The position numbers were made by a program, and so were the translations under genes. The notes beneath the pieces were generated by a model. The model searched no databases. It saw nothing but the letters and a program-made list of their open reading frames with translations, and was not told where the DNA came from. From an uncultured Desulfohalobiaceae bacterium (GTDB taxonomy: Bacteria > Desulfobacterota > Desulfovibrionia > Desulfovibrionales > CAZUBS01): 63,572 nt of DNA. Below, in pieces: positions 50-28,779 of the stretch. The stretch spans positions 1-63,572 of the forward strand of contig CAZQOG010000003.1 in the NCBI GenBank assembly GCA_964594925.1, written 5' to 3'. Each line of letters opens with the position of its first letter. The stretch's first letter is position 1.

Positions 50-116
50 TGGGGTCTCCTTGGTTGGTGGGGTTGGGTTGAATAGTGACGGTAGTGCAGG
101 GTGGGGGGGTTGTAAA

Positions 117-224
117 TGGGACTGATAGGACCGATAGGACGGAAAGGACCGATAGGACCCCCCCTATAGGACGATAGGACCCAGTCTTTTGCCGGTGGTC
201 CTATCCGTCCTATCGGTCCTATTC
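117..224. repeat. Opposed 9-nt tandem arrays: TAGGACSGA-type units 117-182, 14-nt linker, GTCCTATCG-type units 198-224
   Basis: Read directly: ...gataggaccgataggacggaaaggaccgataggacc...ggtcctatccgtcctatcggtcctatt. The two arms are mutually complementary. The last unit overlaps the stop codon at 219-221. Confidence 0.9.
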
Positions 225-911
225 TTTCACCACCGGCAATGTCTTCTTGCACTTCGGAAAAAACGAGCAGCCCCAGAACTCACTTCCGGCCCACCGCCCC
301 TGGCGCGCTTGCCTTTTGACCATGGGCTTGCCGCACCGGGGGCAGGGTGGGGATCCTGCCTTGGCCCCAACTTCAGCCCGCTGCTCCATCCGGGCGGCGT
401 ACAACCGCTCGCTGAACCCGCCCTTTTCGAGAAAGCTTGCTTCCAGGGACTTGATCTGCCGGTCCAGCAGGTAGTTGGTCTGGTGGATGAGGCAGATGAC
501 CGTGTTGGCCGCAATCTCGGGGTCGGGGTGGTCGAGCCATTTTGTATAGCGGAAGGCTTCCCGTTGGCGGGCCAGGGCGCGGACCTTGCGGGCCCGGTCG
601 TCCTGCTTGTCCCAGACCGGCAGGCGGCGCTGGCGCAGGAAGTCCTCGTAGTCCAGGAGCAGCTCGTCCAGACTGGCCCGTCCCACGCTGGTCAGCTTGA
701 GCTCCGACTTGGCCGAGGTGGCCGCGGCCCGGCTGCCTTCGGCGATGTTCTGTCGGCCGCTGCGCGCGGCCTGGACCATCTGGTCGCGTGTGCGGGTGTT
801 TCTGGGCAGGAAGCGGTGGCAGAAGCGGACCGTGGCGTCGTAGATGATGGTGGCGTTGCGGAAGGAGTGCAGGCTGCGGTAACCGCCGTGGGGTGGGATG
901 GGGTTGTTCAT
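219..911 (-). CDS. Four-helix-bundle protein (23S rRNA intervening-sequence protein / Avd family) with C-terminal topoisomerase-type C4 zinc ribbon
   Basis: N-terminal part has the IVP-family core (QMVQAARSGRQNIAEGS...GRASLDELLLDYEDFL). C-terminus is CPRCGKPMVKRQARQGRWAGSEFWGCSFFPKCKKT, matching the CxxC...GCSxxPxC pattern of topoisomerase Zn fingers. The ATG directly abuts a repeat unit and no clear RBS is present. Confidence 0.75.
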   Translation of the reverse strand: MNNPIPPHGGYRSLHSFRNATIIYDATVRFCHRFLPRNTRTRDQMVQAARSGRQNIAEGSRAAATSAKSELKLTSVGRASLDELLLDYEDFLRQRRLPVWDKQDDRARKVRALARQREAFRYTKWLDHPDPEIAANTVICLIHQTNYLLDRQIKSLEASFLEKGGFSERLYAARMEQRAEVGAKAGSPPCPRCGKPMVKRQARQGRWAGSEFWGCSFFPKCKKTLPVVKE

Positions 912-1148
912 AGGACCGATAGGACCGATAGGACGGATAGGACGGATAGGACCGATAAGATCCCATCCTCAGGACTATGGGACTATAGGACCGGGCTACT
1001 GCAAATGGCGGGCCTACCGCGCAAGGCCAGCCACTTGCGGGTTGTGCCGGAAAAGTGTTTTGCATTGTGCACACCCCGCTGTGCACAATGCCCTCTTGGG
1101 GGTGTCCCATCCGTCCTATAGGTCCTATCGGTCCTATCCGTCTTATTC
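910..1148. repeat. Opposed 9-nt arrays (ATAGGACSG x6 at 910-963; GTCCTATNG x5 at 1104-1148) bracketing a 140-nt spacer
   Basis: Read directly. The arms are reverse complements at the unit level. The spacer contains the 1062-1091 palindrome. Confidence 0.9.
1062..1091. promoter_or_regulatory. Perfect 12-bp inverted repeat GCATTGTGCACA-CCCCGC-TGTGCACAATGC (candidate operator or RNA hairpin)
   Basis: Arms are exact reverse complements and each arm contains the palindrome TGTGCACA. It lies between the divergent 4HB gene and the cheBR-like gene. Confidence 0.45.
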
Positions 1149-1245
1149 TTCCACCCCCCCTCTTTGCCCTTTCCCATGACATCGCCTAGACACGCAAAGA
1201 AATTCGCGTACCCTGAACTGTAACCCGAAAACGAGGCACCGCGCC

Positions 1246-4200
1246 ATGGTCGAGAAAAAGCAGCAGACCACCAACACCCACACCGAAACCTGGACCAAGC
1301 CAGAGGGGCTGCCCGATTCCGGCCGGGAAGGCGAGCAGGAACAAGCCGGGTCTTCCCCCCCGGAAGCCGGCCAACCGCACCAGCCCTCCCAGCAGGATGC
1401 ACCGCATCAGGAGCCGGAGAAGGCCCCAGTGCCGGAGCAAAAGGCCCCAGAGCCTGCCGATCAGGAGAACTGGTTCCCGGTGGTCGGGGTGGGGGCCTCG
1501 GCCGGGGGGCTGGAGGCCCTGGAGGCCATGTTCTCCGGTGAGGGCGACGCCTGCGACATGGCCTTTGTGGTGGTCACCCATACCAGTCAGAAGCAGGTCT
1601 CCATGCTGCCCGAGCTGCTGGCCCGCAAGACGGGCCTTGCCGTGGTGGAGGCCGGGGACGGCATGGAAGTGGCCCCGGGAAAAATTTTCGTGCACCCCAC
1701 GGACCGGGACGTGGTCCTTAAGGGGGGGCGGCTCAGGCTCGTGGCGAGGGAGAAGTCTGACGGCCTGCATCTGCCCGTGGACAGGCTGTTCGAGTCCCTG
1801 GCCTGGGAGCTGCGCGAGCGCTGCGCCGTGGTGGTGCTCTCGGGCAGCGGCAGCGACGGCACCCGTTCCCTGTCCACGGTCAAGGAGCAGGACGGCCTTG
1901 TCCTGGTCCAGGATCCCGAGAGCGCCAAGTACACGGGCATGCCGGCCAGCGCCATCCGCACCGGCATGGTGGACGACGTGGTGGACGCCAAAAACATCTG
2001 CCGGGTGCTCCGGGACTACTTCGCCACCCTGACCGAGATCATCTCCAAAGGGGACCGGGAGCGGCGCGAGGTCATCGCCAGGCAGGAGATGGAGGCCATC
2101 CTCTCCCTGCTCAAAAACCGCACCGGCCGCGATTTTTCGAACTACAAGAAGAACACCTTGATCCGGCGCATCCAGCGGCGCATGGCCGTGACCGGATCGG
2201 ACTCGCCCAATAAATACATCCTGGCCATGAAAAAGTACCGGGACGAGGTGGACAATCTGCACCAGGAGCTGCTGATCGGGGTGACCAGCTTCTTCCGGGA
2301 CCCGGGGGCCTTCGAGCATCTGCGGCAGGAGGTCCTGCCCGGGCTGGTGCGCCAGGTGGAGGACTCGGAGCAGCTGCGGGTCTGGGTGCCGGGGTGCGCC
2401 AGCGGGGAGGAGGCCTACTCCCTGGCCATGCTGCTGACCGAGACCGTGCAGGAGCTGGAGGCCAACCTGGAGTACCAGGTCTTTGCCACGGACATCGACC
2501 AGCAGGCCTTGGGGCGGGCCAGGCAGGGGCAGTACCCCAAGGCCATTGCCTAGGACGTCACCCCGGAGCGGCTGAAGCGGTTCTTCACCGAGCAGGAGCA
2601 GGGCTTCCAGGTGCGCAAGGAGATCCGGGACCACATCGTGTTCGCGGTCCAGGACGTGCTCAGGGACCCCCCGTTCACCCGGCTGGACCTGGTGGCCTGC
2701 CGCAACCTGCTCATCTACCTGGAGAGCCGGGCCCAGAAGAAGCTCATCCCCCTGTTCCACTACGTGCTCAATCCCGGGGGGGTGCTCTTTCTGGGCACCT
2801 CGGAGAGCGTGGGCGAGTTTACCGAGCTCTTCGCCCCCATCAACCAGAAGTGGAACATCTTTCGCCGGCGCGAGGTCGCGGCGGGCCTTCGGCCCGGGAT
2901 GGCCTTCCCCTCGGGCCGGAGGGAGCGCAAGCAGGCGCACGCCGTGCCCGGGCAGGCAGAGGCGGAGCAAGAGACCACGCCCAGGCCCAGCCTGGAGGAG
3001 GCGGTGCAGGAGGTGCTGCTCGAGGAGCACACCCCGCCGGCGGTCATCGTGGACGAGCAGGGGGAGATCGCCTACTTCCACGGACGCACCGGCAAGTACC
3101 TGGAGCACTCTCAGGGCCGGCCCTCGGCCAGCCTGCACAACCTGGCCCGGGAGGGGATCAGGTTCGAGCTCTCCTCCTGCCTGCGCCGGGCGGTCTCGTC
3201 CGGGGAGGAGGTGACCCGGGAGAACCTGTGGGTGCGCACCAACGGGGGGCGGCAGCATTTGGCCCTGAAAGTCAGTCCCTTGAACGATCCCCAGCCCCTC
3301 AAGGACATGTACCTGGTCCTGTTCCTGGACCGGCCCGAGCCCGAGCAGGCGCCACCTTCTGAGGTGGACGTCTCCGACCTGGAGCAGGAGGTCCAAGAGC
3401 ACGTGCAGGACATGGAGAAGGCCCTGCAGGCCTGCCAGCGGGAAAAGCGCACCCTGCAGGAGGAGTTGGAGACCACCACCGAGGAGCTCCGGTCCTCCAA
3501 CGAGGAGCTGCAGTCTTCCAATGAGGAGCTGCAGTCCACCAACGAGGAGTTGGAGTCGTCCCGGGAGGAGCTGCAGTCCCTGAACGAGGAGCTGACCACG
3601 GTCAACACCGAGCTCGAGGAGAAGATGGACCAGATCTCCCGGGCCTATCAGAACGTGAGCTCGCTGTTCAACTCCACCCGCATCCCCATCCTGTTCCTGG
3701 ACCGGGAGCAGCGGGTCAAGCGCTTCACCGGGGCGGCGACCGACCTGGTCCACGTCATGGACACGGACATCGGCCGGCCCGTGACCCACCTGGCTTCGGA
3801 GTTCAAGGAGCTGGACATTGCCGGGGCCGCCCGCCGGGTCCTGGAGTCCCTGGACCCGGTGGAGCAGGAGGTGGCCACCACCGGCGGGGATTGGTACCAG
3901 ATGCGGGTTCTGCCCGCCCGTGACGCTGACCAGCGCATCAGCGGCACCGTGGTCACCTTTTTGAACATCAACGCCCAGAAAGAGGCCCAGGAGAAGATCA
4001 AGGCCCTGCACCAGGACAAGATCGAGGCGACCAGGCGCTACGCCGAGAACGTCGTGGACACGGTGCGCGAAGCGCTGCTGGTGCTGAACGACAAGAACAT
4101 GGTCATCTCGGCCAACCGCTCCTTCTACCGCATGTTCAAGGTCAAGAAGGAGGAGACCGAGGGCCGCCACCTGACCGACCTGGGCCGGGGCCAGTGGGAC

Positions 4201-4416
4201 ATCCAAAGGCTCAAGGACTTGCTCAAAAAGGTGCGCTGCACCAGCGAGCCCTTCGAGGACTACCTGGTGGAGCACGACTTCCCGGGCATCGGCTACCGCA
4301 CCCTGCTGCTCAACGCCCGCAGGCTGCAACGTCAGGACGTGGGCGAGGAGCGGATCCTGCTGGCCATGGAGGACGTGACCGGGAAGAGGAAGAGGGAAGA
4401 AAAGGATGAAGGATGA
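1246..4416 (+). pseudogene. CheB methylesterase - CheR methyltransferase - coiled coil - PAS fusion, interrupted by a single in-frame TAG at 2551-2553
   Basis: ORFs 1246-2553 and 2611-4416 share one frame. CheB motifs: FPVVGVGASAGGLEAL, SGSGSDGT. CheR motifs: TSFFRDP, VWVPGCASGEEAYSLAML, ACRNLLIYL. EELxSSNEEL heptads and C-terminal PAS follow. Read-through gives QYPKAIA*DVTPERLKRFF, so the stop lies inside the CheR domain. Confidence 0.75.
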
Positions 4417-4592
4417 AGGATGAAGGATGAGGGAAAGGCAGGGAAGATCCAGTTTTGTGGACGAAGTGGACGATGTGGACTGAGTGGACTGAGTGGACGA
4501 AGAGGACCAATAGCACCCCGCCCCACCGTCCTATAGTCCTATCGGGGGGTCCTATCGGTCCTATCCGTCCCATCGGTCCTATCGGTCCTATC
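4404..4592. repeat. Composite repeat element: GGATGAA x4 (4404-4431), GTGGACNNN x6 (4457-4510), GTCCTATNG x7 (4528-4592)
   Basis: Read directly. Same module order and same 3' tail as 6855-6992 and 12849-12991. Confidence 0.9.
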
Positions 4593-4629
4593 CACAGCCC
4601 CCCACAACAAAACCACCAATGACCCCATC

Positions 4630-6855
<2,226 letters not shown>

Positions 6856-7060
6856 TGGACGAAGTGGACTGAGTGGACAAAGTGGACCAAGTGGACACCA
6901 TAGGACCATAGGACCCCACCCGGTCCTATCGTCCTATGCGGGGGGGTCCTATCCGTCCAATCGGTCCTATCGGTCCTATCCGTCCTATCCACAACCCCCC
7001 GCACCTCTTCCCCCAACCCCCCAGTCCTGCTATCCTGCGCCCAAACCAAGGAGCCCACCC

Positions 7061-8053
7061 ATGCCCCCAGCCCTGACCCACGCCCAGAAGACCGACCTCT
7101 ACCGCACCATGGTGCTCATCCGCGTTTTCGAGGAGCGCATTGCCCGGCTGGCTGCGGAAGGGGAGCTGGTGCCGGGGATGCAGATCCTGGCCACCGGGCA
7201 GGAGGCGGTGGCCGCGGGGGTTGTCGCGGCCATGCGCGAAGAGGACGTGTGCATCACCAACCACCGCAGCCACGGCCACCTGCTGGCCAAGGGCGCGGAC
7301 CCGGGCAAGCTCATGGCCGAGATCATGGGCCGGGTGGAGGGGGTGAATCTGGGCAAGTCCGGCACCCTGCACCTGGCCGTGCCCGAGGTGAATGCGCCCA
7401 TGACCTCCACCGTGGTCGGGGCCGGGCCGCCCCTGGCCGTGGGCGCGGCCTTTGCCCAGAAGTACCGGGGCGAGGACACCCTGACCGCGGTCTTTTTCGG
7501 GGACGGGGCAGCGGCAGAGGGCAGCGTGCACGAGGCCATGAACCTGGCCGGGGTGTGGAGGCTGCCGCTGCTCTTCGTGTGCGAGAACAACTGCTGGGCC
7601 GGGGCCCAGGCCTTTCAGACCCACTGCTCGGCCGGCAAGATAGCCCACCGTGCCGCGGGGTATGGCATGGAGGGCCGGTTCGTGGACGGCAACGACGTGG
7701 AGGCGGTTCACGACGCGGCTGGTGAGCTCATGGCCGGCATCCGGGGCGGCGGTGGGCCGGTCCTGATGGAGGCCCTGACCTACCGCATGCGCGGCCACGG
7801 CGAGCGCGACCGGCAGCACTACGTGGACCCGGAGGAGCTGGCCGGATGGGCCGAGCTCTGCCCGGTGCGCTGTTATGGCGAGAAGCTCGTCCAGGGCGGG
7901 GTGCTGCGCACGGGCCAGCGCACGTCCATACGCGACGAGATGCAGGGCCGGGTGGAAGGCGCCGTGACCTTCGCCGCCATGAGCCCCTGGCCCGAGCCCG
8001 AGGAGGCCATGGACCACGTGTGGGTGAACGAGCCGGTTGGGTTTCGGGGGTAG
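7061..8053 (+). CDS. TPP-dependent 2-oxoacid/acetoin dehydrogenase E1 component, alpha subunit
   Basis: AAGGAG RBS. E1-alpha pattern (HRSHGHLLAKG, FFGDGAAAEGSVHEAMNLA, LFVCENN). Confidence 0.85.
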   Translation: MPPALTHAQKTDLYRTMVLIRVFEERIARLAAEGELVPGMQILATGQEAVAAGVVAAMREEDVCITNHRSHGHLLAKGADPGKLMAEIMGRVEGVNLGKSGTLHLAVPEVNAPMTSTVVGAGPPLAVGAAFAQKYRGEDTLTAVFFGDGAAAEGSVHEAMNLAGVWRLPLLFVCENNCWAGAQAFQTHCSAGKIAHRAAGYGMEGRFVDGNDVEAVHDAAGELMAGIRGGGGPVLMEALTYRMRGHGERDRQHYVDPEELAGWAELCPVRCYGEKLVQGGVLRTGQRTSIRDEMQGRVEGAVTFAAMSPWPEPEEAMDHVWVNEPVGFRG

Positions 8054-8067
8054 AAGAAAGATTTTTG

Positions 8068-8160
8068 GTGGACGAAGTGGACCAAGTGGACACAGTGGAC
8101 TGAGTGGACAGGGGTTTGGTCCACTTCGTCCACTTGGTCCACAAAGTCCACTCAGTCCAC
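8068..8160. repeat. Intercistronic mirrored nonamer arrays: GTGGACNNN x5 (8068-8112) directly followed by NNNGTCCAC x5 (8116-8160)
   Basis: Read directly. The units of arm 2 are reverse complements of the arm 1 units, in the same order. Confidence 0.9.
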
Positions 8161-8179
8161 GAAAACCAAGGAGAAAAAA

Positions 8180-9154
8180 ATGCCCGAGCTCTCTTACGGC
8201 CAGGCCGTGCAGGACGCCCTGGCCACGGCCATGGAGCTGGACGACCGGGTGTTCATTGCCGGGGAGGGGGTGGGGACCTCGATTCACGCCGACCCCAACA
8301 TGCCCACCGCGGGCTTGTTGGAGCGCTTTGGTCCCGCCCGGGTGCTGGACACGCCGGTCAGCGAGGCGGCCATTGCCGGACTGGCCGTGGGTGCGGCCTG
8401 TCAGGGGCTGCTGCCGGTGGTGGAGATCATGTTCTTCCCCTTTTTCACCCTGGCCTCGGACATGCTGGTCAACCACGCGGCCAAGCTGCGCTACCTCTCC
8501 GGGGGGAAGTCCCGCTTCCCCCTGACCGTGCGGGTCAAGGCCGGGGTCAACTTCACTGCCGGCTGCCAGCACTCTCACAACCTGGAGGCCTGGGTGGCCC
8601 ACGTGCCCGGCCTCAAGCTGACCTACGCCGCGACCCCGGCAGAGGCCAAGGGGCTGCTGCTGGAGGCCATCTTCGACCCCGACCCGGTGGTGGTGGTGGA
8701 GGAGATGACCCTGTACTGGTCCCGGGGCGAGGTTCCCGAGGGCGATCACCGGGTGGCCCTGGGCCAGGCCCGGATCGTGCGCCAGGGAACCGACTGCAGC
8801 CTGGTCACCTACGGCGGGGCCGTGTTCACTGCTTTGCGGGCGGCCGAGCTGCTGGAGGCCGAAGGCGTGTCCCTGGAGGTCGTGGACCTGCGCTCCCTGG
8901 TGCCCTTGGATCGGGACGCGGTGCTCGCCTCGGTGCGCAAAACCGGACGCCTGGTGGTGCTGCACGACGCCACCCGGTTCTGCGGGTTCGGGGCCGAGAT
9001 CGCGGCCCTGGTGGCCGAGGAGTGCTTTGCCGAGCTCAAGTCCCCGGTCCGGCGGGTGGCCGCGCCGGATATTCCGGTGCCGTTCTCCCCCCCCATGGAG
9101 GGGTTTTACCGGCCCTCGGCAGAACGGGTGGTGGAGGCGGTGTTGAAAGGATGA
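8180..9154 (+). CDS. TPP-dependent dehydrogenase E1 component, beta subunit
   Basis: AAGGAG RBS at 8168-8173. Transketolase-like pyrimidine-binding and C-terminal domains (VLDTPVSEAAIAGLAVGAA...). Confidence 0.85.
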   Translation: MPELSYGQAVQDALATAMELDDRVFIAGEGVGTSIHADPNMPTAGLLERFGPARVLDTPVSEAAIAGLAVGAACQGLLPVVEIMFFPFFTLASDMLVNHAAKLRYLSGGKSRFPLTVRVKAGVNFTAGCQHSHNLEAWVAHVPGLKLTYAATPAEAKGLLLEAIFDPDPVVVVEEMTLYWSRGEVPEGDHRVALGQARIVRQGTDCSLVTYGGAVFTALRAAELLEAEGVSLEVVDLRSLVPLDRDAVLASVRKTGRLVVLHDATRFCGFGAEIAALVAEECFAELKSPVRRVAAPDIPVPFSPPMEGFYRPSAERVVEAVLKG

Positions 9155-9187
9155 AGGCTGAGGGGTGAAGGATGAGAAAGCAGGAAA

Positions 9188-9213
9188 AGCGCGGCTGGGG
9201 CCGCGCTTTTTTT
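9188..9213. terminator. Rho-independent, probably bidirectional terminator
   Basis: AAAA-GCGCGGC-tggg-GCCGCGC-TTTTTTT between the convergent E1 beta and mscS-like genes. Confidence 0.8.
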
Positions 9214-9295
9214 GTGGACGGAGTGGACAAAGAGTATTGGGAGGGAGGGTCTTGTCCACTTCGTCCACCCCGTCCACCAAGTCCACCCCGTCCAC
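9214..9295. repeat. Nonamer arrays: GTGGACNNN x2 then NNNGTCCAC x5
   Basis: Read directly. The last unit abuts the stop codon at 9296-9298 of the minus-strand gene. Confidence 0.85.
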
Positions 9296-10399
9296 TCAAG
9301 GGGGAGTCCCCCCGGGGGTGTCGGTTGGTTCCTGTTCGGATTCCCTACCGACTTCCGCCCGCAGCCGAGGGAGGGCTCCGGGATAGTTTTGTCGGATCCA
9401 TTCGATCATTTTCTCCCGGATGTGGCAGCGCAGCATCCAGGCCGTGCCCGAGTCCGGGGCGCTCATGAGCAGGCGCACGGTCATGGTCCGGTCGGTGGAG
9501 TCGGTGACCTGGACGTTCCAGACCTGGCCGTCCCAGTCCTCGGAGTCGTCCAGGAGGCGCTTGTACTCGGCTCGCAGCTCCTCCAGGGGCACGGTGTAGT
9601 CCAGGGGCAGCACCACCGTGCCCAGGATGCCGGCCGAGACCCGGGTCCAGTTCTGAAAGGGCTGCTCGATGAAGTAGGAAATGGGCAGGATCAGGCGCCG
9701 CTGGTCCCAGATGCACACCACCACGTAGGTCAGGGTGATGTCCTCGATGCGGCCCCACTCACCCTCGACCACCACCACGTCGTCCAGCCGGATGGGCTGG
9801 GTGAAGGCGATCTGGATTCCAGCCAGCAGGTTGCCCAGGGTGCGCTGGGCAGCCATGCCGATGATCAGCCCGGCAATACCGGCAGAGGCCAGCAGGCTGG
9901 CGCCCACGTTGCGCCCCCCCTTGAAGCTCATGAGGATGACCGCCCCCGCGATGACGGCCAGCACCACGTAGACCACCTTCTTGAGCACCTGGATCTGAGT
10001 GTGGATCTTGCGGGCCCTGAGGTTGTCCGCCACGCCCATCTGGAAACGCTCCAGGATGACAGCCTCGAAAACGATCAGGCCCTGCCGGGCGGCCCAGAAA
10101 AGCACCACCATCCAGGAGATGTTCAGAAAATGCCCCAGATACTCTGTCCAGGGGCTCTCGATCCTGAGCAGGGGCAGGGCCAGCTGCAGGCCGAGGAGCA
10201 GGAAGGCGACCAGGGAAAGCTTTCTGAAATGGGTGCTGCAATGCGCGAGCACAGGGTGGTTTTCATCCCTCCGGGCAATCCTCCTCAGGACTCGGAAGAG
10301 GATGAAATGGGCAGCCAGGGCGAGAACAATGGTGACCCCGGCGAGGAGCAGGTTCATGGACCAGCTGGTGAAGAGTGCGGTCAGGCTTGGTATGTTCAT
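9296..10399 (-). CDS. Mechanosensitive ion channel (MscS family)
   Basis: N-terminal TM helices followed by the conserved MscS beta-domain (NLLAGIQIAFTQPIRLDDVVVVEGEWGRIEDITLTYVV). Confidence 0.85.
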   Translation of the reverse strand: MNIPSLTALFTSWSMNLLLAGVTIVLALAAHFILFRVLRRIARRDENHPVLAHCSTHFRKLSLVAFLLLGLQLALPLLRIESPWTEYLGHFLNISWMVVLFWAARQGLIVFEAVILERFQMGVADNLRARKIHTQIQVLKKVVYVVLAVIAGAVILMSFKGGRNVGASLLASAGIAGLIIGMAAQRTLGNLLAGIQIAFTQPIRLDDVVVVEGEWGRIEDITLTYVVVCIWDQRRLILPISYFIEQPFQNWTRVSAGILGTVVLPLDYTVPLEELRAEYKRLLDDSEDWDGQVWNVQVTDSTDRTMTVRLLMSAPDSGTAWMLRCHIREKMIEWIRQNYPGALPRLRAEVGRESEQEPTDTPGGTPP

Positions 10400-10692
10400 G
10401 GCAGGTACGGGTGGTCTGGGTTGCGGTCTGTCAGGGGGAAACCTTTGTGTATGTTATGCTGGGGTTGATATGAAAAGTCAAAACCACTCTTCCCATGATG
10501 CTGATCACGCTGCTATCCTGTCGGTGATTCAGGCCGGGAAAATCCCCCCCGCGTGTCCTTCTTGAGGGCCGAAACCTGGCGGCAGACGAGGTTTACAGAG
10601 AGTTGGGCAGGGTTTAGAGAGGATTGAGACAGGCTGTTGTGAAAATCGCACGGCACCCAACAGGCACGGAAACCGTTTCCATCTCAAGAGGC

Positions 10693-12012
10693 ATGGCAAT
10701 GGGTAGAAAGGCAGACACGCAGGGCCGGGGAAACAAAGACAGTGCAGACAGCCACGACGAGTACCGTTTTGTGGTGGAGTTCACCGACGACCTGGTGGCG
10801 GTGGTGGACCGGGGCGGCGTCTACCGCATGGTCAACGAGGCCTTTCTCAAGCGTCGCGGACTTGAGCGCACAGAGGTGGAGGGCCGGCAGGTCAGGGATG
10901 TGGTGGGCCCGGAGGCCTACGACAAAGTCATCGGCCCCAACCTGAAGCGCTGCCTGCAGGGGGAGGTCGTGGAGTACGAGATGTCCCACGACTACCCCGG
11001 TCTGGGGCAGCGCCATCTCCTGGTCAGGTACTCCCCCATCCTGGGCCGGGAGGGCGAAGTCGTCCGGGCCGTGTCCGTGATCAGGGACATCACCGAGCGC
11101 AAACAGGCCGTGATCTCCCTTCAGGAAAGCGAGGAGCGTTTCCGGGAGCTGGTGGAGAACATCGAGGAGGTCTTCTGGCTGACCGAGCCCGGGGACCCAA
11201 AACGGGTGCGCTATGTGAGCCCGGCCTACCAGAGGATCTGGGACCGGCCGGCTGATGATCTCTATGACAATCCCAGGGCCTGGATCGAGTCTGTCCACCC
11301 CGAGGATCAGTCCACCGTTCGCAAGGTCTATGCGTCGTTTTTGGCCGGGCAGTCAGGCTTCGACCTGGAGTACCGGATCGTCCGGCCCGACGGGAGCGAG
11401 CGCTGGATCTGGGACCGGGCCTTTCGAACCGGGGAGCGCCGGGAACAGTCCGACTCCATTGCCGGACTGGCCCAGGACATCACATGGCGCAAGCAGCAGC
11501 AGCAGCGCATCCACCACATGGCCATGCACGACCCGCTCACCGGCCTGCCCAACCGCAACCTGTTCACGGACCGCTTTCTCCAGGCCAAAGCCCTGGCCAA
11601 ACGGACCACAACAAAGCTGGCCCTGCTCTACGTCGACCTGGATCACTTCAAGGAGGTCAACGACTCCTTTGGGCACAAGGTCGGGGACACCGTGCTTTCA
11701 GAGGTGGCCCGGCGGATCAAGCTCTGTCTGCGCGACACGGATACCGTGGCCCGCTTCGGCGGTGACGAGTTCGTGCTGCTCATGTCCCAGGTCAGGGGCA
11801 GGAAGGACGTGGAGCCCGTGGCCTACCGGATCCTGGCCGCTCTGAGCGGCCCCGTGCGCCACTCCCTGGGCGTGTCCCGCCTGAGCGCCAGCATCGGCAT
11901 CGCCCTCTATCCAGACCTGGGCCAGGACCAGGACACTTTGATCAGGGAGGCGGACAAGGCCCTGTACACGGTCAAGCAGTCCACTGGAAACGGGTTCCTG
12001 TTTGCAGGGTAA
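10693..12012 (+). CDS. PAS-domain diguanylate cyclase (GGDEF)
   Basis: Two PAS modules and the GGDEF motif RFGGDEF. Start moved to ATG 10693, which has an AAGAGG RBS; the track ORF begins at an upstream TTG. Confidence 0.85.
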   Translation: MAMGRKADTQGRGNKDSADSHDEYRFVVEFTDDLVAVVDRGGVYRMVNEAFLKRRGLERTEVEGRQVRDVVGPEAYDKVIGPNLKRCLQGEVVEYEMSHDYPGLGQRHLLVRYSPILGREGEVVRAVSVIRDITERKQAVISLQESEERFRELVENIEEVFWLTEPGDPKRVRYVSPAYQRIWDRPADDLYDNPRAWIESVHPEDQSTVRKVYASFLAGQSGFDLEYRIVRPDGSERWIWDRAFRTGERREQSDSIAGLAQDITWRKQQQQRIHHMAMHDPLTGLPNRNLFTDRFLQAKALAKRTTTKLALLYVDLDHFKEVNDSFGHKVGDTVLSEVARRIKLCLRDTDTVARFGGDEFVLLMSQVRGRKDVEPVAYRILAALSGPVRHSLGVSRLSASIGIALYPDLGQDQDTLIREADKALYTVKQSTGNGFLFAG

Positions 12013-12030
12013 AGACAAGGCTACGCAAGG

Positions 12031-12150
12031 GTCCGACCGATCCGACGCATCCCGCATCGGACTCTCGGTCGATCGGACATTCGGAGCCGGATAGTCCGAT
12101 AGTCCGAAACAAGATCGGTCTGATCTGTCAGATCCGTCAGATCGATCAGA
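12031..12150. repeat. Third short-period repeat family: GTCCGA/TCGGAC units in both orientations, TAGTCCGA x2, TCNGTCAGA x4
   Basis: Read directly: gtccgaccgatccgac...tcggac...tcggac...atagtccgatagtccga...tcggtctgatctgtcagatccgtcagatcgatcaga. Confidence 0.8.
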
Positions 12151-12198
12151 GGCCACAACCCGGCAATAGCCCTCCAGAGCAACCACTGCCGCTTTCCC

Positions 12199-12798
12199 TC
12201 AAGGGGTAAGGCCTCCGGGTGCACTCCCTGGAAGATCACCCCACTTGTCCGGGGGCGGGGCGTAGCTTGTGAAGCGCCCAAGCAGCGCTTCGCTGTCGGA
12301 TTCCACCACCAGTGCCCGGAGGTAGGCCGGACGGATGAAGCCGTCCTGCTCCATGCGCTCGAGCTGGGCCAGGATGCCGTCGTAGTAACCGGCCACGTTG
12401 AGCAGGCCGCACGGCTTGGCGTGCAGTCCGATCTGGACCCAGGTCCAGACCTCGAAGATCTCCTCCAGTGTCCCGGCCCCGCCGGGAAGGGCCACGAAGC
12501 CGTCCGCCAGTTCGGCCATGCGGGCCTTGCGCTCGTGCATGGAGCCCACCAGGTGCAGCTCCGACAGGCCGGTGTGGGCCACCTCCCGGTCCTCGAGCGC
12601 CCGGGGGATGACCCCGACCACTCTCCCTCCCGCCTCCAGGGCCGTGTCGGCCAGCAACCCCATGAGCCCCATGGCCGCCCCCCCGTAGACAAGGGTCATG
12701 CCCTGCCCGGCCACAGCCCGGGCCAGGCCCCTGGCTGCCCGGGCATATTCGGCACGCTCCCCGAAACTCGAACCGCAGAACACGCAGACGCTCTTCAT
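12199..12798 (-). CDS. LOG family (TIGR00730) nucleotide 5'-monophosphate nucleosidase
   Basis: Motifs YGGAAMGLMG and LPGGAGTLEE. Start placed at MKSVCVFCGSS (ATG 12796-12798); the upstream part of the track ORF runs into the repeat array. Confidence 0.85.
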   Translation of the reverse strand: MKSVCVFCGSSFGERAEYARAARGLARAVAGQGMTLVYGGAAMGLMGLLADTALEAGGRVVGVIPRALEDREVAHTGLSELHLVGSMHERKARMAELADGFVALPGGAGTLEEIFEVWTWVQIGLHAKPCGLLNVAGYYDGILAQLERMEQDGFIRPAYLRALVVESDSEALLGRFTSYAPPPDKWGDLPGSAPGGLTP

Positions 12799-12848
12799 GG
12801 CAGCCAGCTTGCCCAAGCAAAGGAGGGTTGGCAAGGACGGAGAAGCGG

Positions 12849-12991
12849 GTGGACTGTGTGGACTGAGTGGACGACGTGGACAGAAGAGCGACCCCTGAAC
12901 CCGCATCTCTTGTCCCATGGTCCTATTCCCCTTTCTTCAGGGGGGGGTCCTATCGGTCCCATCCGTCCTATCGGTCCTATCGGTCCTATTT
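12849..12991. repeat. Composite repeat element: GTGGACNNN x4 (12849-12884) and GTCCTATCG-type units (12912-12928, 12947-12991)
   Basis: Read directly. The tail GGGGGGGTCCTATCGGTCCCATCCGTCCTATCGGTCCTATCGGTCCTATTTACACCCCCC parallels the tails at 4540-4600 and 6940-7000. Confidence 0.9.
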
Positions 12992-13004
12992 ACACCCCCC
13001 CTCT

Positions 13005-13901
13005 TCACCCCACCCGCCTGCGCACTCTCAACCTGGGGGTGTTGGTCAGAAACAGCCCCGTGACCACCAGGGCCGCGCCCGAGACCAGGGTGCCGGAGAG
13101 GCTCTCGCCCAGCAGGACCACCCCCAGGGTCACGGCGGTGACCGGGACCAGGTTGATGAACACCCCGGCCCGGGTGGGGCCGATGGCCCGCAGGCCCTGG
13201 TAGTACCAGGAGAACCCGAGGCCCGTGCCGCAGACGGCCAGGTAGGCCAGCCCGGCCCACTGGGACGCCTCAAGATCCGCAAGGTGCCCGGGGAGCCCCT
13301 GGGCCAGGGCAAAGGGCAGCAGGAGCAGGGCCCCGGCCAGGCAGGAGCCGGTCACCGCCTGCAGCGGGGAGAGCGAGCCCAGGGCCCGCTTGCCGAGCAC
13401 GGAGTAGAGGGTCCAGGAGAGCACGCAGCCGAGCAGGCAGAGTTCGCCCAGGCCAAGCCCGCCGGACAGGAGCTCCAGCGGGTTGCCCCTGGCCAGGACC
13501 ACGGCTGCTCCGCACAGGCAGACGGCAATGCCCAGCGCCTTCTGCAGGGTCAGGCGCTCGCCCATGAACAGGGCCGAGGCCAGGGCGATGCCCACCGGGT
13601 TGAGGGCGATGATCAGGGCGGCCCGGCCCGCAGCCACGGTCTTGAGGCCCTGGAAGAAGAAGACGTTGTAGGCAAAGACCCCGGTCATCCCGAGCAGCAC
13701 GACCAGGGGCCAGTTTTTGCGGGGCAGCCGCAGCCACTGCCCCGTCTCCTTCCAGGTCATGGCCATGAGGAACAGCGAGGCCAGGAAAAAGCGCAGGAAC
13801 GCGGCCTCGAACGGCCCCAGCTCCCTGGACAGCACCCGCCCGGCCACAAAGGTCCCCCCCCAGAACATGGTGGTCAGCACCAGCTTGAGGTAAACGATCA
13901 C
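13005..13901 (-). CDS. DMT-superfamily transporter (EamA family)
   Basis: Ten predicted TM segments in two EamA repeats. GTG start with an AGGGGGG RBS. Confidence 0.8.
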   Translation of the reverse strand: MIVYLKLVLTTMFWGGTFVAGRVLSRELGPFEAAFLRFFLASLFLMAMTWKETGQWLRLPRKNWPLVVLLGMTGVFAYNVFFFQGLKTVAAGRAALIIALNPVGIALASALFMGERLTLQKALGIAVCLCGAAVVLARGNPLELLSGGLGLGELCLLGCVLSWTLYSVLGKRALGSLSPLQAVTGSCLAGALLLLPFALAQGLPGHLADLEASQWAGLAYLAVCGTGLGFSWYYQGLRAIGPTRAGVFINLVPVTAVTLGVVLLGESLSGTLVSGAALVVTGLFLTNTPRLRVRRRVG

Positions 13902-20363: not shown

Positions 20364-21062
20364 ATGAAGACGTTACGCATGGCAGCTATGGTATTGTTTG
20401 CCTTTGCCCTGGTGGGACTTGCCGGGCAGGTCCAGGCGCAGACGCACAGCCCCTATGGTCCCCATTATGGGCAGCGGGGCACGTTTGGGCCGGCCTATGA
20501 CATGTATTGGCCCGGAGCCGAGGATCCCCAGTGGGAAGGGAGAGGCCAGGATACGCGCCAAGGCATGAGAAGCCAGGGTCCGGCCCACACGCCCTACGGC
20601 CCCCATTATGGGCAGCGGGGCACGTTTGGTCCGGCCTTTGACATGTATTGGCCCGGAGCCGAAGATCCCCAGTGGCAAGGGAGAGGCCAGGGCATGCGCC
20701 CCGGCATGAGAAGCCAGGGTCCGGCCCATACCCCGTACGGACCCCATTACGGGCAACGGGGAACCTTCGGCCCGACCTTTGGAATGGATTGGCCCGGCGC
20801 TTACGAAAAGGAGTATGACGAGGAGGAGCAGCGGAAGCTCGGCGAGCTGTGGATGATCCACTACGACAAGGTCTCGCCCATCCGGCAGGAGATCCGCAAG
20901 AAGAAACAGGCCATCAACCAGGAACTCTACTCCGACAATCCCGACAAGCAAGAGCTGGACAGCCTGCGCCAGGACCTGAACGAGCTCTACTCCGAGCTGA
21001 TCGAGGAGCAAGTTAGATTCAGACAGGAGGCCTATGAGAAGACCGGCGTCAAGTACGACTAG
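20364..21062 (+). CDS. Secreted protein: three tandem 47-aa His/Tyr/Trp/Gly-rich repeats plus a C-terminal Spy/CpxP/ZraP-like helical domain
   Basis: AGGAGG RBS and a signal peptide (...GQVQA). Repeats are H(S/T)PYGPHYGQRGTFGPA(Y/F)DMYWPGAEDPQW.GRGQ...MRSQGPA. The C-terminus resembles the periplasmic heavy-metal-sensor/Spy family. Confidence 0.7.
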   Translation: MKTLRMAAMVLFAFALVGLAGQVQAQTHSPYGPHYGQRGTFGPAYDMYWPGAEDPQWEGRGQDTRQGMRSQGPAHTPYGPHYGQRGTFGPAFDMYWPGAEDPQWQGRGQGMRPGMRSQGPAHTPYGPHYGQRGTFGPTFGMDWPGAYEKEYDEEEQRKLGELWMIHYDKVSPIRQEIRKKKQAINQELYSDNPDKQELDSLRQDLNELYSELIEEQVRFRQEAYEKTGVKYD

Positions 21063-23035: not shown

Positions 23036-25798
23036 ATGCCGGCTTTGCCAGAAAAGATCGATCAGGAAAGTTGCGAGCTGCTGCAGCGGGCCATGGAAGC
23101 CGGGGGCGTGTTCGCCTTTGAGTGGGAGCCGGCCCAGGACAGGACCCTGCGCTCCGAGTCGGCTGCCGGAATCCTGGGCCTGGACCCGGAGCTGTCCAGG
23201 GAGACAACCGGAAAGGACCATTTCGAGCGGGTCCACGAGCAGGACAGGCCGGCTTTCAAGGCCATGGTCGAGCAGCTGCACCCCGGGCAGCCGGCATACA
23301 GTGTCACCTACCGGTTCAGGCGTCCGGACGGCGGGGTGATCTGGCTGGAGGAAAGCGGCACGGCCTTGTTCGACGGGGACGGGACAATGATCCAGCTGAC
23401 AGGGGTCGTCTCGGACATCACCGAACGCAGAAGGATCGAGGACGCCCTGCAGGCGGAACGGGCCAAGCTGTACGGTATCCTGAACAGCATGCACGACGGG
23501 GTGTGCATCATCTCGGCCGATTATGAGCTGGAGTACGTCAACCCTGTTCTGGAGCGGGACTTCGGCCCGGTGGAGGGGAAGAAGTGCTACGCCTACTTCC
23601 ACGACCGGAACGCAGCCTGCACACGCTGCAGAAACCCCGACATCCTGGCCGGCAGGACACTGCGCTGGGAGTGGTACTCGCCAAAGGTGGACAAGACCTA
23701 CGACCTGATCGACTCTCCACTTTGCAACCCGGGCGGCTCCGTTTCCAAGCTGGAGATCCTGCGGGACATCAGCGAACGCAAGCAGGCCGAGCAGCGGCAG
23801 CGGGAAAAGGATCGTGAGTTTCGCACCCTGGCGGAGCACACCCCGGACGTCATCGTGCGCTACGACCGCCAGTACATCCGCGTCTATGCCAACCCGGCCC
23901 TGGCCCGTCTGACCGGCAGGCCCCTGAAGGAGTTCGTGGGCAGGCCGGTCTACGAGCCGGATATCAGCGAGAGGGCCGAGTTGGTCGACCGGATCGAGCG
24001 GGCCCTGACCCGGGTGTACAAGACGGGCAAGGAGACCAGCTTCGAGTCCTGGATGGCCACCCGGGAAGGGGTGCGCTGGTTCACCAACATCGCGGTTCCG
24101 GAACGGGAGACCACGGGCCGCTTCGAAACCGTCCTGGTCGTGTCCAGGGACATCACCGAGTACAAGCGTCTCCAGGACAAGCTGCACAGGGCCAGGGACG
24201 TGGCGGAAAAACGCTCCAGCGAGCTGAGCGCCTCCCTGGAGGCCATGGCGGACGGGGTCGTTTTTTACGACACCGGGCACAAGATCTCGGCCATGAACCC
24301 CGCTGCCGAGCGCATCCTGGGCTTCACCCTCGAGGAGGTGGAGGATTTACCCGCTGCGGAGCGCATCGCCCTTTTTCAGGTCAGGTCCGCCGCGGGCGAC
24401 CTTTTGGAGAAGCAGGGCCTTGTGGGCTGGAAGGCGCTGCAGGGGGAGATCGTGGTCAATGAGGAGTTCCTGCTCTACCCCAGAGAAAGCGAGGCCCCGG
24501 TGCACGTCCTGTCCAGCGCTGCCCCGCTGCGGGATCTGGATGGCAGGGTGACCGGAGCGGTGCAGACCCTCACCGACATCACGGATCTGAAAAGGATCGA
24601 AAACGAGCTCCGGCAGGCCAAGCAGGAAGCCGAAACCGCCAACCGGGCCAAGTCGGAGTTTTTGTCCCACATGAGCCACGAGATACGCACCCCGCTCAAC
24701 GGGATCATCGGCCTGGCCGCGCTTGCCGGGCGCAGGACCCGAGAATCCGAGACGGGTGACTACCTGGCCATGATCAACGAATCCTCGGAACACCTGCTGG
24801 ACATCGTCAACGACATCCTGGACCTGTCCAAGATCGAAGCGGGCAGGACCGAGCTGCTCCCTGCGCCCTTCTCATTCCGGGAGTTTTTCGAGTCGACGCT
24901 CCGGCCACTGAGCATGGAGGCAGAGGGCAAGGGGCTCGACTTCCGATTCGAGACCGACCCTGCCATCCCGGACCGGCTGCTGGGAGACGTGGGCAGGATG
25001 CGCCAGGTGCTGGTCAACATCGTGGGCAACGCCGTCAAGTTCACCGAGCAGGGCTCGATCACGGTCACTGCGGAGCTGTCAGACGCCCCGGGATCAGCCA
25101 GCACCACAGAGGTCCGATTTTCAGTCGTTGACACGGGAATCGGCATTTCCAGGCAGGACCTGGGGCGGATCTTCGAGAGCTTTGACCAGGCACCCACCTC
25201 GGCCCACGTCACCTATGGCGGGACCGGCCTGGGGCTGACCATATCCAGAAGCCTCATCGAGATGATGGGAGGGGACATCGTGGTTGCAAGCGAGAAGGAC
25301 CGGGGCAGCACCTTCACCTTCACCATGGAGCTGCAGCAGGACCAGGAAAGAGCCGCGCCTGCTGCAAAGCCACGGGTTGCAGGACAAAAGCCGGGCCCTC
25401 TCAAGCTCCTGGTGGCCGAGGACAACGCCCTGAACCTGATCGTCATCGAGGAGCTGCTCAAGGACGCCGGACACCAGGTGGTTGTGGCGCGCAACGGCCT
25501 GGAGGTTCTGGAAGAGCTGGGCCGGAAGTCCTTCGACGCGGTGCTCATGGACATCTCCATGCCCGAGCTGTCCGGCGACGAAGCTGCCCGGGCCATCCGC
25601 AACGACCCGCCCCCGGGGGTGGACCCGGGCGTGCCCATCATCGCCCTGACAGCCTACGCCCTGGACACCGACAGGGTCCGGTTTGCAGGCTGCGGCTTCA
25701 ACGCCTACCTGACCAAGCCGGTGGAGTTCGAGGATCTGGAGGAGGTCCTGGCGGAGGTGGTTGGGGGGGGAGCTGGAAGCTCGAAGCTGGAAGCTTGA
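23036..25798 (+). CDS. Multi-PAS hybrid sensor histidine kinase / response regulator
   Basis: Several PAS modules, H-box SHEIRTPLNGI, HATPase_c (DTGIGI, GGTGLGLTI) and REC (DAVLMDISMPELSG). The last codons (GAGSSKLEA) are encoded by the heptamer array. Confidence 0.9.
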   Translation: MPALPEKIDQESCELLQRAMEAGGVFAFEWEPAQDRTLRSESAAGILGLDPELSRETTGKDHFERVHEQDRPAFKAMVEQLHPGQPAYSVTYRFRRPDGGVIWLEESGTALFDGDGTMIQLTGVVSDITERRRIEDALQAERAKLYGILNSMHDGVCIISADYELEYVNPVLERDFGPVEGKKCYAYFHDRNAACTRCRNPDILAGRTLRWEWYSPKVDKTYDLIDSPLCNPGGSVSKLEILRDISERKQAEQRQREKDREFRTLAEHTPDVIVRYDRQYIRVYANPALARLTGRPLKEFVGRPVYEPDISERAELVDRIERALTRVYKTGKETSFESWMATREGVRWFTNIAVPERETTGRFETVLVVSRDITEYKRLQDKLHRARDVAEKRSSELSASLEAMADGVVFYDTGHKISAMNPAAERILGFTLEEVEDLPAAERIALFQVRSAAGDLLEKQGLVGWKALQGEIVVNEEFLLYPRESEAPVHVLSSAAPLRDLDGRVTGAVQTLTDITDLKRIENELRQAKQEAETANRAKSEFLSHMSHEIRTPLNGIIGLAALAGRRTRESETGDYLAMINESSEHLLDIVNDILDLSKIEAGRTELLPAPFSFREFFESTLRPLSMEAEGKGLDFRFETDPAIPDRLLGDVGRMRQVLVNIVGNAVKFTEQGSITVTAELSDAPGSASTTEVRFSVVDTGIGISRQDLGRIFESFDQAPTSAHVTYGGTGLGLTISRSLIEMMGGDIVVASEKDRGSTFTFTMELQQDQERAAPAAKPRVAGQKPGPLKLLVAEDNALNLIVIEELLKDAGHQVVVARNGLEVLEELGRKSFDAVLMDISMPELSGDEAARAIRNDPPPGVDPGVPIIALTAYALDTDRVRFAGCGFNAYLTKPVEFEDLEEVLAEVVGGGAGSSKLEA

Positions 25799-25947
25799 AG
25801 CAAGACTGAAGAGAGAAACAGCTGGAAGCTCAAAGCTGAAAGCTCGAAGAATACCGCTCAACTGACAACGCGTGACGGAATCAAGAGGGATCCAGGCAAC
25901 CGTCTTATGCTTGTGCTCTTGCTTCCAGCTTCCAGCTTCGAGCTTCA
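25771..25947. repeat. Heptamer-array hairpin: AGCTGGA/AGCTCGA units 25771-25806 pair with 25917-25947 (1 mismatch over ~30 nt); ~110-nt spacer with more heptamers
   Basis: GAAGCTCGAAGCTGGAAGCTTGAAGCAAGA versus reverse complement TGAAGCTCGAAGCTGGAAGCTGGAAGCAAGA. Confidence 0.85.
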
Positions 25948-26597: not shown

Positions 26598-26656
26598 CGA
26601 CGTCGAACTTCGAACCAAAATTTCTTGCTTTGAGCTTTCAGCTTTGAGCTTCGAGC
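26598..26656. repeat. Heptamer units (TCGAACT, GCTTTGA/GCTTTCA) in the lepA-lepB spacer
   Basis: cgacgtcgaacttcgaacc...gctttgagctttcagctttgagcttcgagc. Confidence 0.8.
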
Positions 26657-28578: not shown

Positions 28579-28779
28579 GTTCGGAGTTGGAAGTTCGAAG
28601 CTCGAAGCTGGAAGGAAGCAGCTCAAAGCTCAAAGCTGAAAGCAGGAAATGAATGACATTGCTCAATGCTCAAGGCTGAATGCTCAATGCAAGAAGAAGA
28701 GTTTGATGGTCCGATGCTCGGGAACATCATATTTCTTGCCTGAGAACTTAGAGCTTCCGACTTCGAACTTCGAACTTCC
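28579..28779. repeat. Heptamer-array hairpin arms (28579-28619 / 28751-28779) enclosing GCTCAAA/GCTGAAA and GCTCAAT units
   Basis: GGAAGTTCGAAGCTCGAAGCTGGAAGG versus reverse complement GGAAGTTCGAAGTTCGAAGTCGGAAGCTC. Confidence 0.8.

Follow-up and report, generated by a model that had tools for sequence, protein, structure and literature searches.

The stretch of DNA analysed here (the window) comprises positions 1-63,572 of contig CAZQOG010000003.1, from the metagenome-assembled genome (MAG) GCA_964594925.1 of an uncultured Desulfohalobiaceae bacterium. Gaps between genes in its first 13 kb carry arrays of 9-nt units, to which a preliminary description had drawn attention, and a gene at 219-911 on the minus strand encodes a protein with a four-helix bundle (4HB) and a zinc ribbon. 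This gene, which the preliminary description missed, belongs to the same system as the arrays. Sequence reading of 1-13.8 kb, together with Tandem Repeats Finder, recovered period-9 arrays at every place where they had been reported. Allowing at most two mismatches, 27 matches to GTCCTATCNGTCCTAT were counted in the window against 0.04 expected from shuffled sequences; there were 18 matches to GTGGACNNNGTGGACNNNGTGGAC against 0.00 expected, and the matches to both were confined to 116-12989.

Pfam-supported genes define nine intergenic gaps in 1-13 kb (51-218, 912-1245, 4417-4629, 6856-7060, 8054-8179, 9155-9295, 10400-10692, 12013-12198 and 12799-13004). Seven of the nine contain TAGGAC/GTCCTA or GTGGAC/GTCCAC arrays and an eighth (12013-12198) contains variant GTCCGATCN/GTCTGATCN units, so that the gap count given earlier was correct; the sole gap in which no array was found was 10400-10692. 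A rough census of the ~24 gaps beyond 13 kb, up to 63 kb, yielded no period-9 arrays and heptamer arrays in six gaps. By our own arithmetic, the clustering (8/9 against 0/24 gaps) corresponds to a hypergeometric P of ~6.5e-7.

Three composite elements, at 4457-4606, 6855-7003 and 12849-13003, could be aligned with a mean column identity of 79%, in agreement with the common layout that had been proposed for them. Each is ~150 nt in size and consists of three parts: an array of four to six GTGGACNNN units with variable spacers (W), a linker that evolves fast, and a module (M) made of 8-nt GTCCTANN units, a run of five to eight G, exactly five GTCCYATNN nonamers, a YYACAN tail and a run of five to seven C. 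The 8-nt units number two or three, with one at 12849-13003 and none at 1098-1160. The right half had been thought to vary between five and seven units, but the copies in the window and in relatives all contain a fixed five-nonamer module. Five copies of M are present in the window (100-181, reversed; 1098-1160; 4528-4606; 6923-7003; 12920-13003), and two more were found in related Desulfohalobiaceae MAG sequence (L005 and L121), while M was absent from all other loci among the 211 that were fetched. The L005 contig ends inside the fifth nonamer, leaving six complete copies of the seven. The constancy of the five units together with the G-run, tail and C-run at five loci, and the presence of M at a different locus and in the opposite orientation in L121, confirm that these are copies of one dispersed element and not independent microsatellites. 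The composite is modular, as W and M are separable in relatives, a point that the preliminary description missed. In two copies (4585-4597 and 6982-6994) the tail of M, CTATCCACA, matches at 8/9 positions what we take to be the DnaA-box consensus, TTATCCACA; the tail in the other copies is CTATTTACA or CCATTTACA.

The arrays and the gene are arranged in the window as follows.

100-181, minus strand: reversed M module, in which the C-run reads as G7 at 104-110 and the G-run as C at 159-164; between these are the tail TTGTAAAT and five nonamers of the TAGGAC type (117-158), and two 8-nt units complete the module.
198-222, plus strand: array of three GTCCTATCN units that includes the TAG stop codon of the 4HB gene; paired with 117-181, it forms a hairpin shortly beyond the 3' end of that gene.
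219-911, minus strand: 4HB-Zn-ribbon gene, encoding 230 aa with an Avd/S23p-like four-helix bundle, a suffix domain and a C-terminal Top1/GRF-type zinc ribbon.
910-957, plus strand: five TAGGACNNN units that overlap the 4HB start codon and form the right edge of a block conserved at 99-100% between strains.
958-1097, no strand assigned: unique, fast-diverging spacer (82% between strains) outside the conserved cassette, with a nested palindrome at 1062-1091.
1098-1160, plus strand: M module facing outward, with G5, five nonamers, tail TTCTTCCA and C7.
4457-4507, plus strand: W array of five to six GTGGACNNN units, retained in the run-X4 strain without the adjacent M.
4508-4606, plus strand: linker, two 8-nt GTCCTANN units and M, with the G-run at 4544, five nonamers at 4549-4593, CCACAG and C6.
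6855-7003, plus strand: composite of five W units, an inner hairpin of 8-nt units (two TAGGACCA and two GTCCTATC) and then M.
8068-8160, no strand assigned: hairpin of five W units and five inverted W units, between the E1 alpha and E1 beta genes.
9214-9295, no strand assigned: foldback of two W units and five inverted W units, preceded by a canonical terminator hairpin (9185-9213) and directly adjoining the stop codon of MscS.
12027-12150, no strand assigned: variant foldback of GTCCGA/TCGGAC and GATCNGTCN nonamers, the flavour usual around 4HB-suffix genes elsewhere.
12849-13003, plus strand: composite of four W units, a 58-nt linker and an M made of G8, five nonamers, TTTACA and C7; its end lies 3 nt short of the EamA stop codon.

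The arrays had been said to touch start and stop codons, and the coordinates of all such contacts agreed with this. Both ends of the 4HB open reading frame fall within units, TAGGAC at the start and GTCCTA at the end: the start codon (CAT, 909-911) overlaps TAGGAC at 911-916, and its stop codon (TAG, 219-221, minus strand) lies inside GTCCTA at 216-221. The kinase stop codon (TAG, 6853-6855) overlaps GTGGAC at 6855-6860, the first G of the composite being the last base of the stop. The MscS stop codon (TCA, 9296-9298) abuts GTCCAC at 9290-9295, and the EamA stop codon (13005-13007) is located 3 nt beyond the C-run of the 12849-13003 composite. The number of units was five in 10 of the 13 arrays in the window.

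Paired arrays in the window were all convergent, the left arm being built of ..GGAC units and the right arm of GTCC.. units, a rule of polarity that the preliminary description missed. At 119 loci with GTCCTATCNGTCCTATC from other genomes of several phyla the ratio of convergent to divergent pairs was 24:1. No arrays were found in 789 kb of unrelated control loci (JGI metagenome loci from a hybrid-kinase scan, which gave only paralogues at ≤47% identity). Complementarity of the spacers in hairpin register was at chance (14/60 against 14.2 in shuffles), indicating that the structure consists of 6-bp helices with 3 x 3 internal loops, much as the 6-bp helices separated by 3-nt bulges envisaged earlier. 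GTGGAC units additionally pair with GTCCTATCG units via GGACYGA/TCGGTCC, including G-U pairs, and the composites are therefore imperfect foldbacks. RNA folding gave -62.5 kcal/mol (z -8.5) for the E1 alpha-E1 beta hairpin (8060-8170), -60.8 kcal/mol (z -3.7) for the hairpin at 100-226, and z values of -4.3, -4.2 and -2.9 for the composites on the plus strand; on the transcribed strand, the 12849 composite reached a z of only -1.8. A terminator scan called no element terminator-like and found none with a U-tract after the stem, and only the separate hairpin at 9185-9210 fits an intrinsic terminator.

The second arm of the 8068-8160 hairpin consists of reverse complements of the first-arm units in the same left-to-right order (3/4), not mirrored. 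This order was not general across 22 foldbacks from other loci. We rejected it as a rule: exact-core arrays scored 3/50 in mirror register and 14-16/50 in parallel register, but no signal remained once array extension tolerated a single mismatch in the core (scores of 14, 15 and 19 out of 60, with 13-14 in shuffles).

The protein encoded at 219-911 scored 84.5 bits against TIGR04258 (four helix bundle suffix; cut-off 40), 24.6 bits against TIGR02436 (cut-off 24) and 39.3 bits against PF01396 (Top1-type zinc ribbon; cut-off 32), with a weak match to PF05635. In its AlphaFold model (pLDDT 88.9), a helical bundle leads into a zinc ribbon of three strands. The best fold matches were the PF05635 structures 2gsc and 2rld and the Avd chain 8ub7_B of a diversity-generating retroelement (DGR), the latter with a TM score of 0.67-0.70 normalised to the target for the N-terminal domain, and the C-terminus matched the NEIL3 GRF fingers (7jl5); Foldseek E-values were weak (0.09 or more) because of the multi-domain query. 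The family is very large, with at least 8000 members (all 8000 candidates that were scored passed), and it is unusually well conserved. Identity to the protein was 56-64% in over 100 homologues that share its domain order, and homologues span Bacteroidota, Verrucomicrobiota, Chloroflexota, Brocadiia and Desulfobacterota. The family was not found in IMG/VR, and a plasmid collection held one true homologue, from Prevotella nigrescens, the other matches being to the zinc ribbon alone.

The same nonamer class accompanies the 4HB family across phyla, both outside the gene and in frame inside it. Three or more tandem D-x-[ST] triplets were present in 55/120 homologues (46%) and in 0/120 E1beta controls. 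They occur at four fixed linker positions (the N-terminus, ~0.48 and ~0.78 of the length, and the C-terminus) and translate GATCNGWCC or GATAGGACC, which are in-frame units of this class. Nonamers were located just upstream of, downstream of or inside the gene at eight loci (L126, L129, L130, L392, L395, L397, L079 and L023) and in P. nigrescens (L398). At the seven loci with neighbours called, the gene was co-oriented with them inside unrelated operons; examples are a site between hsdS and hsdR, one that follows an MmeI-type gene and one flanked by phage genes for portal and capsid. The P. nigrescens gene (NZ_CP082843.1, 260483-261172) encodes a 4HB-suffix protein with a coiled-coil tail in place of the zinc ribbon. 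The species is a cultured, AT-rich bacterium, and the foldback that comes after the gene (TAGGAA/TTCCTA, period 9) is the same unit in an AT-rich version.

In the window, the 4HB gene lies between a desulforedoxin-like gene and the cheB/cheR gene and is the only repeat-flanked gene, with M modules facing outward on both sides of the cassette (100-164 and 1098-1160). We compared this region with L399, a relative assembled from another sample. Identity was 91.8% in the neighbouring gene (1-49), 100% in 50-99, 100% in the hairpin and M (100-218), 99.4% in the 4HB gene (with an identical protein), 97.6% in the array upstream of it, 82.0% in the spacer at 958-1097, 95.2% in M at 1098-1160 and 93.2% in the cheBR-side flank. 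The 4HB gene and its immediate arrays have thus been exchanged or homogenised much more recently than the flanks. The nested palindrome at 1062-1091 (TTGTGCACA...TGTGCACAA), between the 4HB gene and cheBR, is retained in L399 despite the 82% identity of the spacer and could be an operator.

The window is derived from a metagenome, and short-read contigs of the source runs break inside the arrays, which raises the possibility that the elements are artefacts of assembly or binning. We consider this scarcely credible, since the elements recur base-identical, or with few strain differences, in contigs from other runs and another archive (L120, L399, L121 and X6). Logan contig L120, from another run, is 99.4% identical without gaps and carries both GTGGAC/GTCCAC hairpins unchanged; the ENA contig L399 spans 2-1233, and contigs of runs X4-X6 span 4405-4750, 8036-8580 and 12650-13034. 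The preliminary description had itself named artefactual array lengths as an observation that would overturn it, and these independent metagenome assemblies dispel that concern.

Elements were gained, lost and resized between close relatives. L121, which belongs to the related MAG GCA_964618595.1, is 86-94% identical to and syntenic with 8.1-13.9 kb of the window. Its LOG-EamA gap reads ...AAGCGAGTGGACTGAACTCACCCC, with one leftover W unit (GTGGACTGA) and neither linker nor M (12858-13003 missing), at a place where the window has 155 nt. Its E1beta-MscS gap contains a reversed M, in contrast to the heptamers, terminator and W foldback found in the window. Homology of E1beta stops at the same codon in both, and the repeat supplies the stop codon: TGA in AAGGATG in the window, and TAA in the M tail GGGGGTTGTAAAT in L121. 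Elements at gene ends can replace the last codons and the stop codon of host genes. The 8068-8160 hairpin is present in L120, L121 and X6. In L122-L124 (E1-beta 77-78% identical in amino acid sequence), however, the E1alpha-E1beta gap is 10 nt long and has no hairpin, compared with 126 nt in the window, indicating that the hairpin is an insertion in this lineage. An X4 contig keeps W at 4457 and has 32 nt in place of 4490-4628, including M (matching side 69 nt), and in an X6 contig 6856 is followed immediately by 7002, with W and M both missing (matching side 45 nt). Joints that would indicate absence of the cassette (122>1152, 171>1058 and 226>1158) were not trusted, as their matching sides were only 24-29 nt within repeats.

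Array lengths also differed. The W array at 12849 has six units in X4, X5 and X6, about two more than in the window (+19 nt at 12864 according to the aligner), with three spacer versions and identical cores at 12864. One unit (9 nt) was lost at 953, and the loss at 8152-8165 was about 11 nt. At the three polymorphic sites, among them 12849-13003 (compared with L121) and 6857-7001 (compared with X6), the window copies have no direct repeats at their flanks; thus, no target-site duplication was seen. Arrays were conserved better than their surroundings, with cores kept and spacers drifting: an X6 contig showed no changes in W, six in the linker, one plus an indel in M and ~8% in the next coding sequence, and the hairpin at 8036-8180 had ~1 change against 5.5% in coding sequence.

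Conserved cores at a strict 9-nt spacing with free spacers suggest recognition by a sequence-specific protein. The cassette protein is the only protein consistently tied to the nonamer units, and its domains are of nucleic-acid-binding types. We favour the reading, with a probability of roughly 0.55, that the arrays are a lineage-specific family of miniature non-coding foldbacks, the gene-less companions of an operon-invading 4HB-Zn-ribbon cassette (~50-957). The 6-8-nt cores repeated every 9 nt would be cis sites to which the cassette protein binds, probably when the DNA is single-stranded or folded into a hairpin, the candidate recognition arrays being (GTCCTATCG)5, (CGATAGGAC)5 and W. Binding of the protein, or host recombination or replication at the foldbacks, would copy and homogenise the arrays, slippage would alter the number of units, and effects on the host, such as transcript-end hairpins, would be secondary.

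Several observations weigh against this reading. No enzyme that cuts or joins DNA was identified, and the 4HB protein has no recognisable catalytic domain. The block of 99-100% identity is at the same locus in both strains, which indicates recent exchange and not transposition. A 4HB homologue was found within 8 kb at only 3 of ~120 array-bearing loci, the window included, so that most arrays are far from such genes. The high conservation of the arrays could reflect a host function, not homogenisation. Finally, the three alleles that lack an element differ in shape (one unit left, W kept, all gone), which is equally compatible with untidy deletion of hairpins, and for each of the two absences in Logan contigs the evidence is one short contig of low depth.

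A bolder proposal, which we put forward tentatively and regard as doubtful, is that 4HB-suffix/Top1-GRF proteins are the trans-acting recognition factors of an undescribed class of mobile elements that lack a transposase. The 4HB protein would oligomerise, perhaps as a pentamer like Avd; five chains are present in the crystal structure 2gsc. Bound to single-stranded or hairpin DNA at arrays of some five nonamers, the oligomer would recruit host replication or repair functions, and the cassette and its gene-less miniatures would thereby be copied into gaps at gene ends and into operons, including restriction-modification operons. Five units are the mode in the window but four are the mode in other genomes, and the argument for a pentamer from unit counts is weak.

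The chief rival to the gene-less-companion reading holds that the elements serve the host as RNA structures: hairpins at transcript ends or within operons, kept by selection, that stabilise upstream mRNA, are processed by RNase III/E or uncouple neighbouring genes, as REP/BIME do, with dispersal incidental. Their position directly after stop codons and mostly between co-directional genes fits this explanation, as do the strong folds of the E1alpha-E1beta hairpin and of two composites on the sense strand (z -4.3 and -4.2) and the conservation of the arrays above that of adjacent coding sequence. However, the absence of a U-tract or a terminator call at any element counts against it, and the 9214-9295 element already has a canonical terminator upstream. 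The 12849-13003 composite runs antisense to the genes it accompanies and has only a poor fold on the strand that is transcribed, divergent genes flank one copy, and the elements occur independently of orientation. Nor is there compensatory complementarity in the spacers, and elements are present or absent among close relatives with gene order unchanged. A search for RNA runs that contain the locus found none. A host RNA role is compatible with a selfish origin and need not exclude it; as the sole explanation we consider it unlikely.

We give less credence to the possibility that the arrays are microsatellites formed in place by slippage from local GGAC/GTCC seeds, without movement and with their similarity due to a small sequence space and gene conversion. 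Unit number does vary between strains (953, 12864, 8152-8165), the 'empty' site in L121 keeps one GTGGACTGA unit, and the X4 strain retains W without M. Slippage would not be expected to produce convergent pairs at 24:1, nor a five-unit M with the non-repetitive G-run, YYACAN tail and C-run and with 8-nt units in every complete copy (6/7), nor M in a different gap and orientation in L121, nor an identical nonamer beside one gene family in distant phyla. Similarly improbable, in our estimate, is that the arrays are binding sites of a host chromosomal protein (nucleoid-associated, regulatory or DnaA-like) that acts in domain organisation or titration, with the 4HB gene as no more than a frequent neighbour. 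Cores of 6-8 bp at a strict 9-bp spacing with free spacers are a signature of protein recognition, and the prevalence of five-unit arrays, the resemblance of two M tails to the presumed DnaA box, and the strong clustering in 0-13 kb (8/9 gaps against 0/~24 beyond) are consistent with such sites. Yet no candidate host factor was identified and the DnaA-like tail is degenerate in the other copies of M, while presence/absence polymorphism and spread across phyla suit selfish DNA better, and the in-frame arrays in 46% of 4HB homologues point to the 4HB gene.

The elements had been described as not recognisable as a named repeat family, and as far as tested this was upheld: no Rfam family came near its gathering score. 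Permissive Rfam thresholds returned only sub-threshold microRNA and sRNA look-alikes reflecting generic hairpins, which we discarded. A literature search found no match for the array sequences, for 'nonamer repeats' in this sense or for 'helix bundle suffix', and the family is apparently undescribed. REP/BIME/REPIN sequences are short, highly repeated extragenic hairpins linked to a repeat-flanked gene, RAYT (TnpA_REP) (PMC3333891, PMC3116915, PMC3733652). The elements of the window are likewise short, extragenic, hairpin-forming, located after gene ends, variable between strains and linked to one conserved repeat-flanked gene. A REP/REPIN, however, is a single palindrome of 20-40 bp, whereas the arms here consist of three to six tandem 9-nt units with mismatched spacers, and alignments of M and of the composites showed no conserved GTAG/CGTC head at the element ends. 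The partner of REP is a Y1 HUH transposase, in contrast to the non-catalytic-looking four-helix bundle and zinc ribbon of the window, and the window unit, unlike REP/REPIN, has a sequence common across phyla. The elements thus resemble REP/REPIN in lifestyle and fail the structural definition of REP.

In Coxiella burnetii, the intervening sequence (IVS) of 23S rRNA contains an S23p/PF05635 open reading frame between stem-forming inverted repeats (PMC4990558). The window cassette shares this organisation, a PF05635-family 4HB open reading frame enclosed by stem-forming inverted repeats, and IVSs are also regarded as selfish inserts in transcribed regions that lack a transposase. The 23S rRNA IVSs of Leptospira carry an S23p/PF05635 open reading frame as well. 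IVSs are inserted in helices 25/45 of 23S rRNA and are excised by RNase III, whereas the cassette lies between protein-coding genes, and no rRNA match was found in 1-14 kb. The cassette further differs from IVSs in having stems made of nonamer arrays, a protein with additional suffix and zinc-ribbon domains, and many gene-less miniatures.

Miniature inverted-repeat transposable elements (MITEs) such as Correia, ERIC and RUP are small non-autonomous intergenic elements with inverted ends, some of which supply stop codons or tails to their neighbours (PMC3184786). The window elements are also small and dispersed between genes, have inverted ends and provide stop codons to neighbouring genes. They differ from MITEs in the lack of target-site duplications at the window copies of the polymorphic sites and in ends made of tandem arrays; moreover, the gene-carrying form encodes only TIGR04258/TIGR02436/PF01396 domains, with no parent insertion sequence bearing a DDE transposase. 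In eukaryotic Foldback transposons the long inverted arms are built from short tandem subrepeats, in numbers that differ from copy to copy; the majority of copies are non-coding, and a few have an open reading frame between the arms. They are kilobase-scale, with no known sequence or protein relationship to the elements described here, and the analogy is one of architecture only. Cyanobacterial STRR heptamers are short tandem intergenic units with several sequence families per genome. The window arrays differ from STRR in their period of 9 rather than 7, their strictly convergent pairs, their fixed module of five units bounded by runs of G and C, and their demonstrated association with a gene family.

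Avd is the accessory protein of DGRs (8ub7; PMC10053308). Its four-helix-bundle fold is shared by the N-terminal domain of the protein encoded at 219-911, which has in addition a zinc ribbon of the type that binds single-stranded DNA. No reverse-transcriptase domain was detected in the ten genes called in 219-13901, and the repeats are short tandem units, not the template and variable repeat pair of a DGR. Scans of IMG/VR with both nonamers gave 153 and 192 solo arrays and no foldbacks. GGTCCTATC and GTGGACNNN are common in viral contigs (L212-L391), including giant-virus bins, with many solo arrays per contig. From their reading frame, these look like unrelated collagen-like coding repeats, G-P-I (GGT CCT ATC) or G-X-S, and both motifs in IMG/VR are a source of false positives in pattern searches. 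Collagen-like coding was rejected for the window arrays, which are intergenic and paired.

Other features of the window were also recorded. AAGGATG and GCTGGAA heptamer arrays lie just upstream of nonamer elements at 4381-4434, 6756-6850 and 9147-9175 and supply, when translated, C-terminal tails together with the stop codons: ...KDEG* in the CheBR fusion, ...GGKRKK* in the hybrid kinase and ...LKG* in E1 beta. The summed contig depth over these heptamers was 10-100x background in four metagenomes, indicating that they are very abundant. A second group (GAAGCTN/NAGCTTC and relatives) was found at 25771-25946, 26627-26656, 28579-28778, 31754-31783, 36901-36972 and 39081-39171, in gaps that adjoin housekeeping genes (a histidine kinase, lepB, lepA, a LytTR regulator and acs); the heptamers at 25771-25946 form a convergent foldback, the design of the nonamer elements with a period of 7. 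A 141-nt tandem repeat at 20445-20797 (2.5 copies, 87% match, Tandem Repeats Finder score 524) is unrelated to the short-period families. The E1 alpha/beta pair of a 2-oxoacid (acetoin-type) dehydrogenase (7061-9154) has no E2/E3 gene on either side in the window. The 1056-codon CheB-CheR-PAS gene (1246-4416) is intact apart from a single in-frame TAG (2551-2553). Related strains have AAG (Lys) at this codon in contigs of runs X2, X5 and X6, so that the TAG is a strain-specific nonsense change or a base error and not recoding.

Small dispersed repeats are common in bacterial genomes, and to our knowledge a partner enzyme is known only for REP/REPIN; we know of no function for the 4HB-suffix/zinc-ribbon family. 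A single window here unites a miniature element, its polymorphism between strains and a conserved gene boxed in by the same units. The pairing of protein and arrays concerns a very large protein family and a class of repeats that breaks short-read assemblies. If real, it would help to explain the occurrence of 4HB genes inside unrelated operons, restriction-modification loci and rRNA genes, the periodic repeats that fill the intergenic gaps of some genomes, and the rewriting of the last codons and stops of host genes. Should 4HB-suffix proteins indeed be the recognition factors of such elements, this would be the first function for the orphan Avd/S23p-like genes and would link them to the intervening sequences of rRNA.

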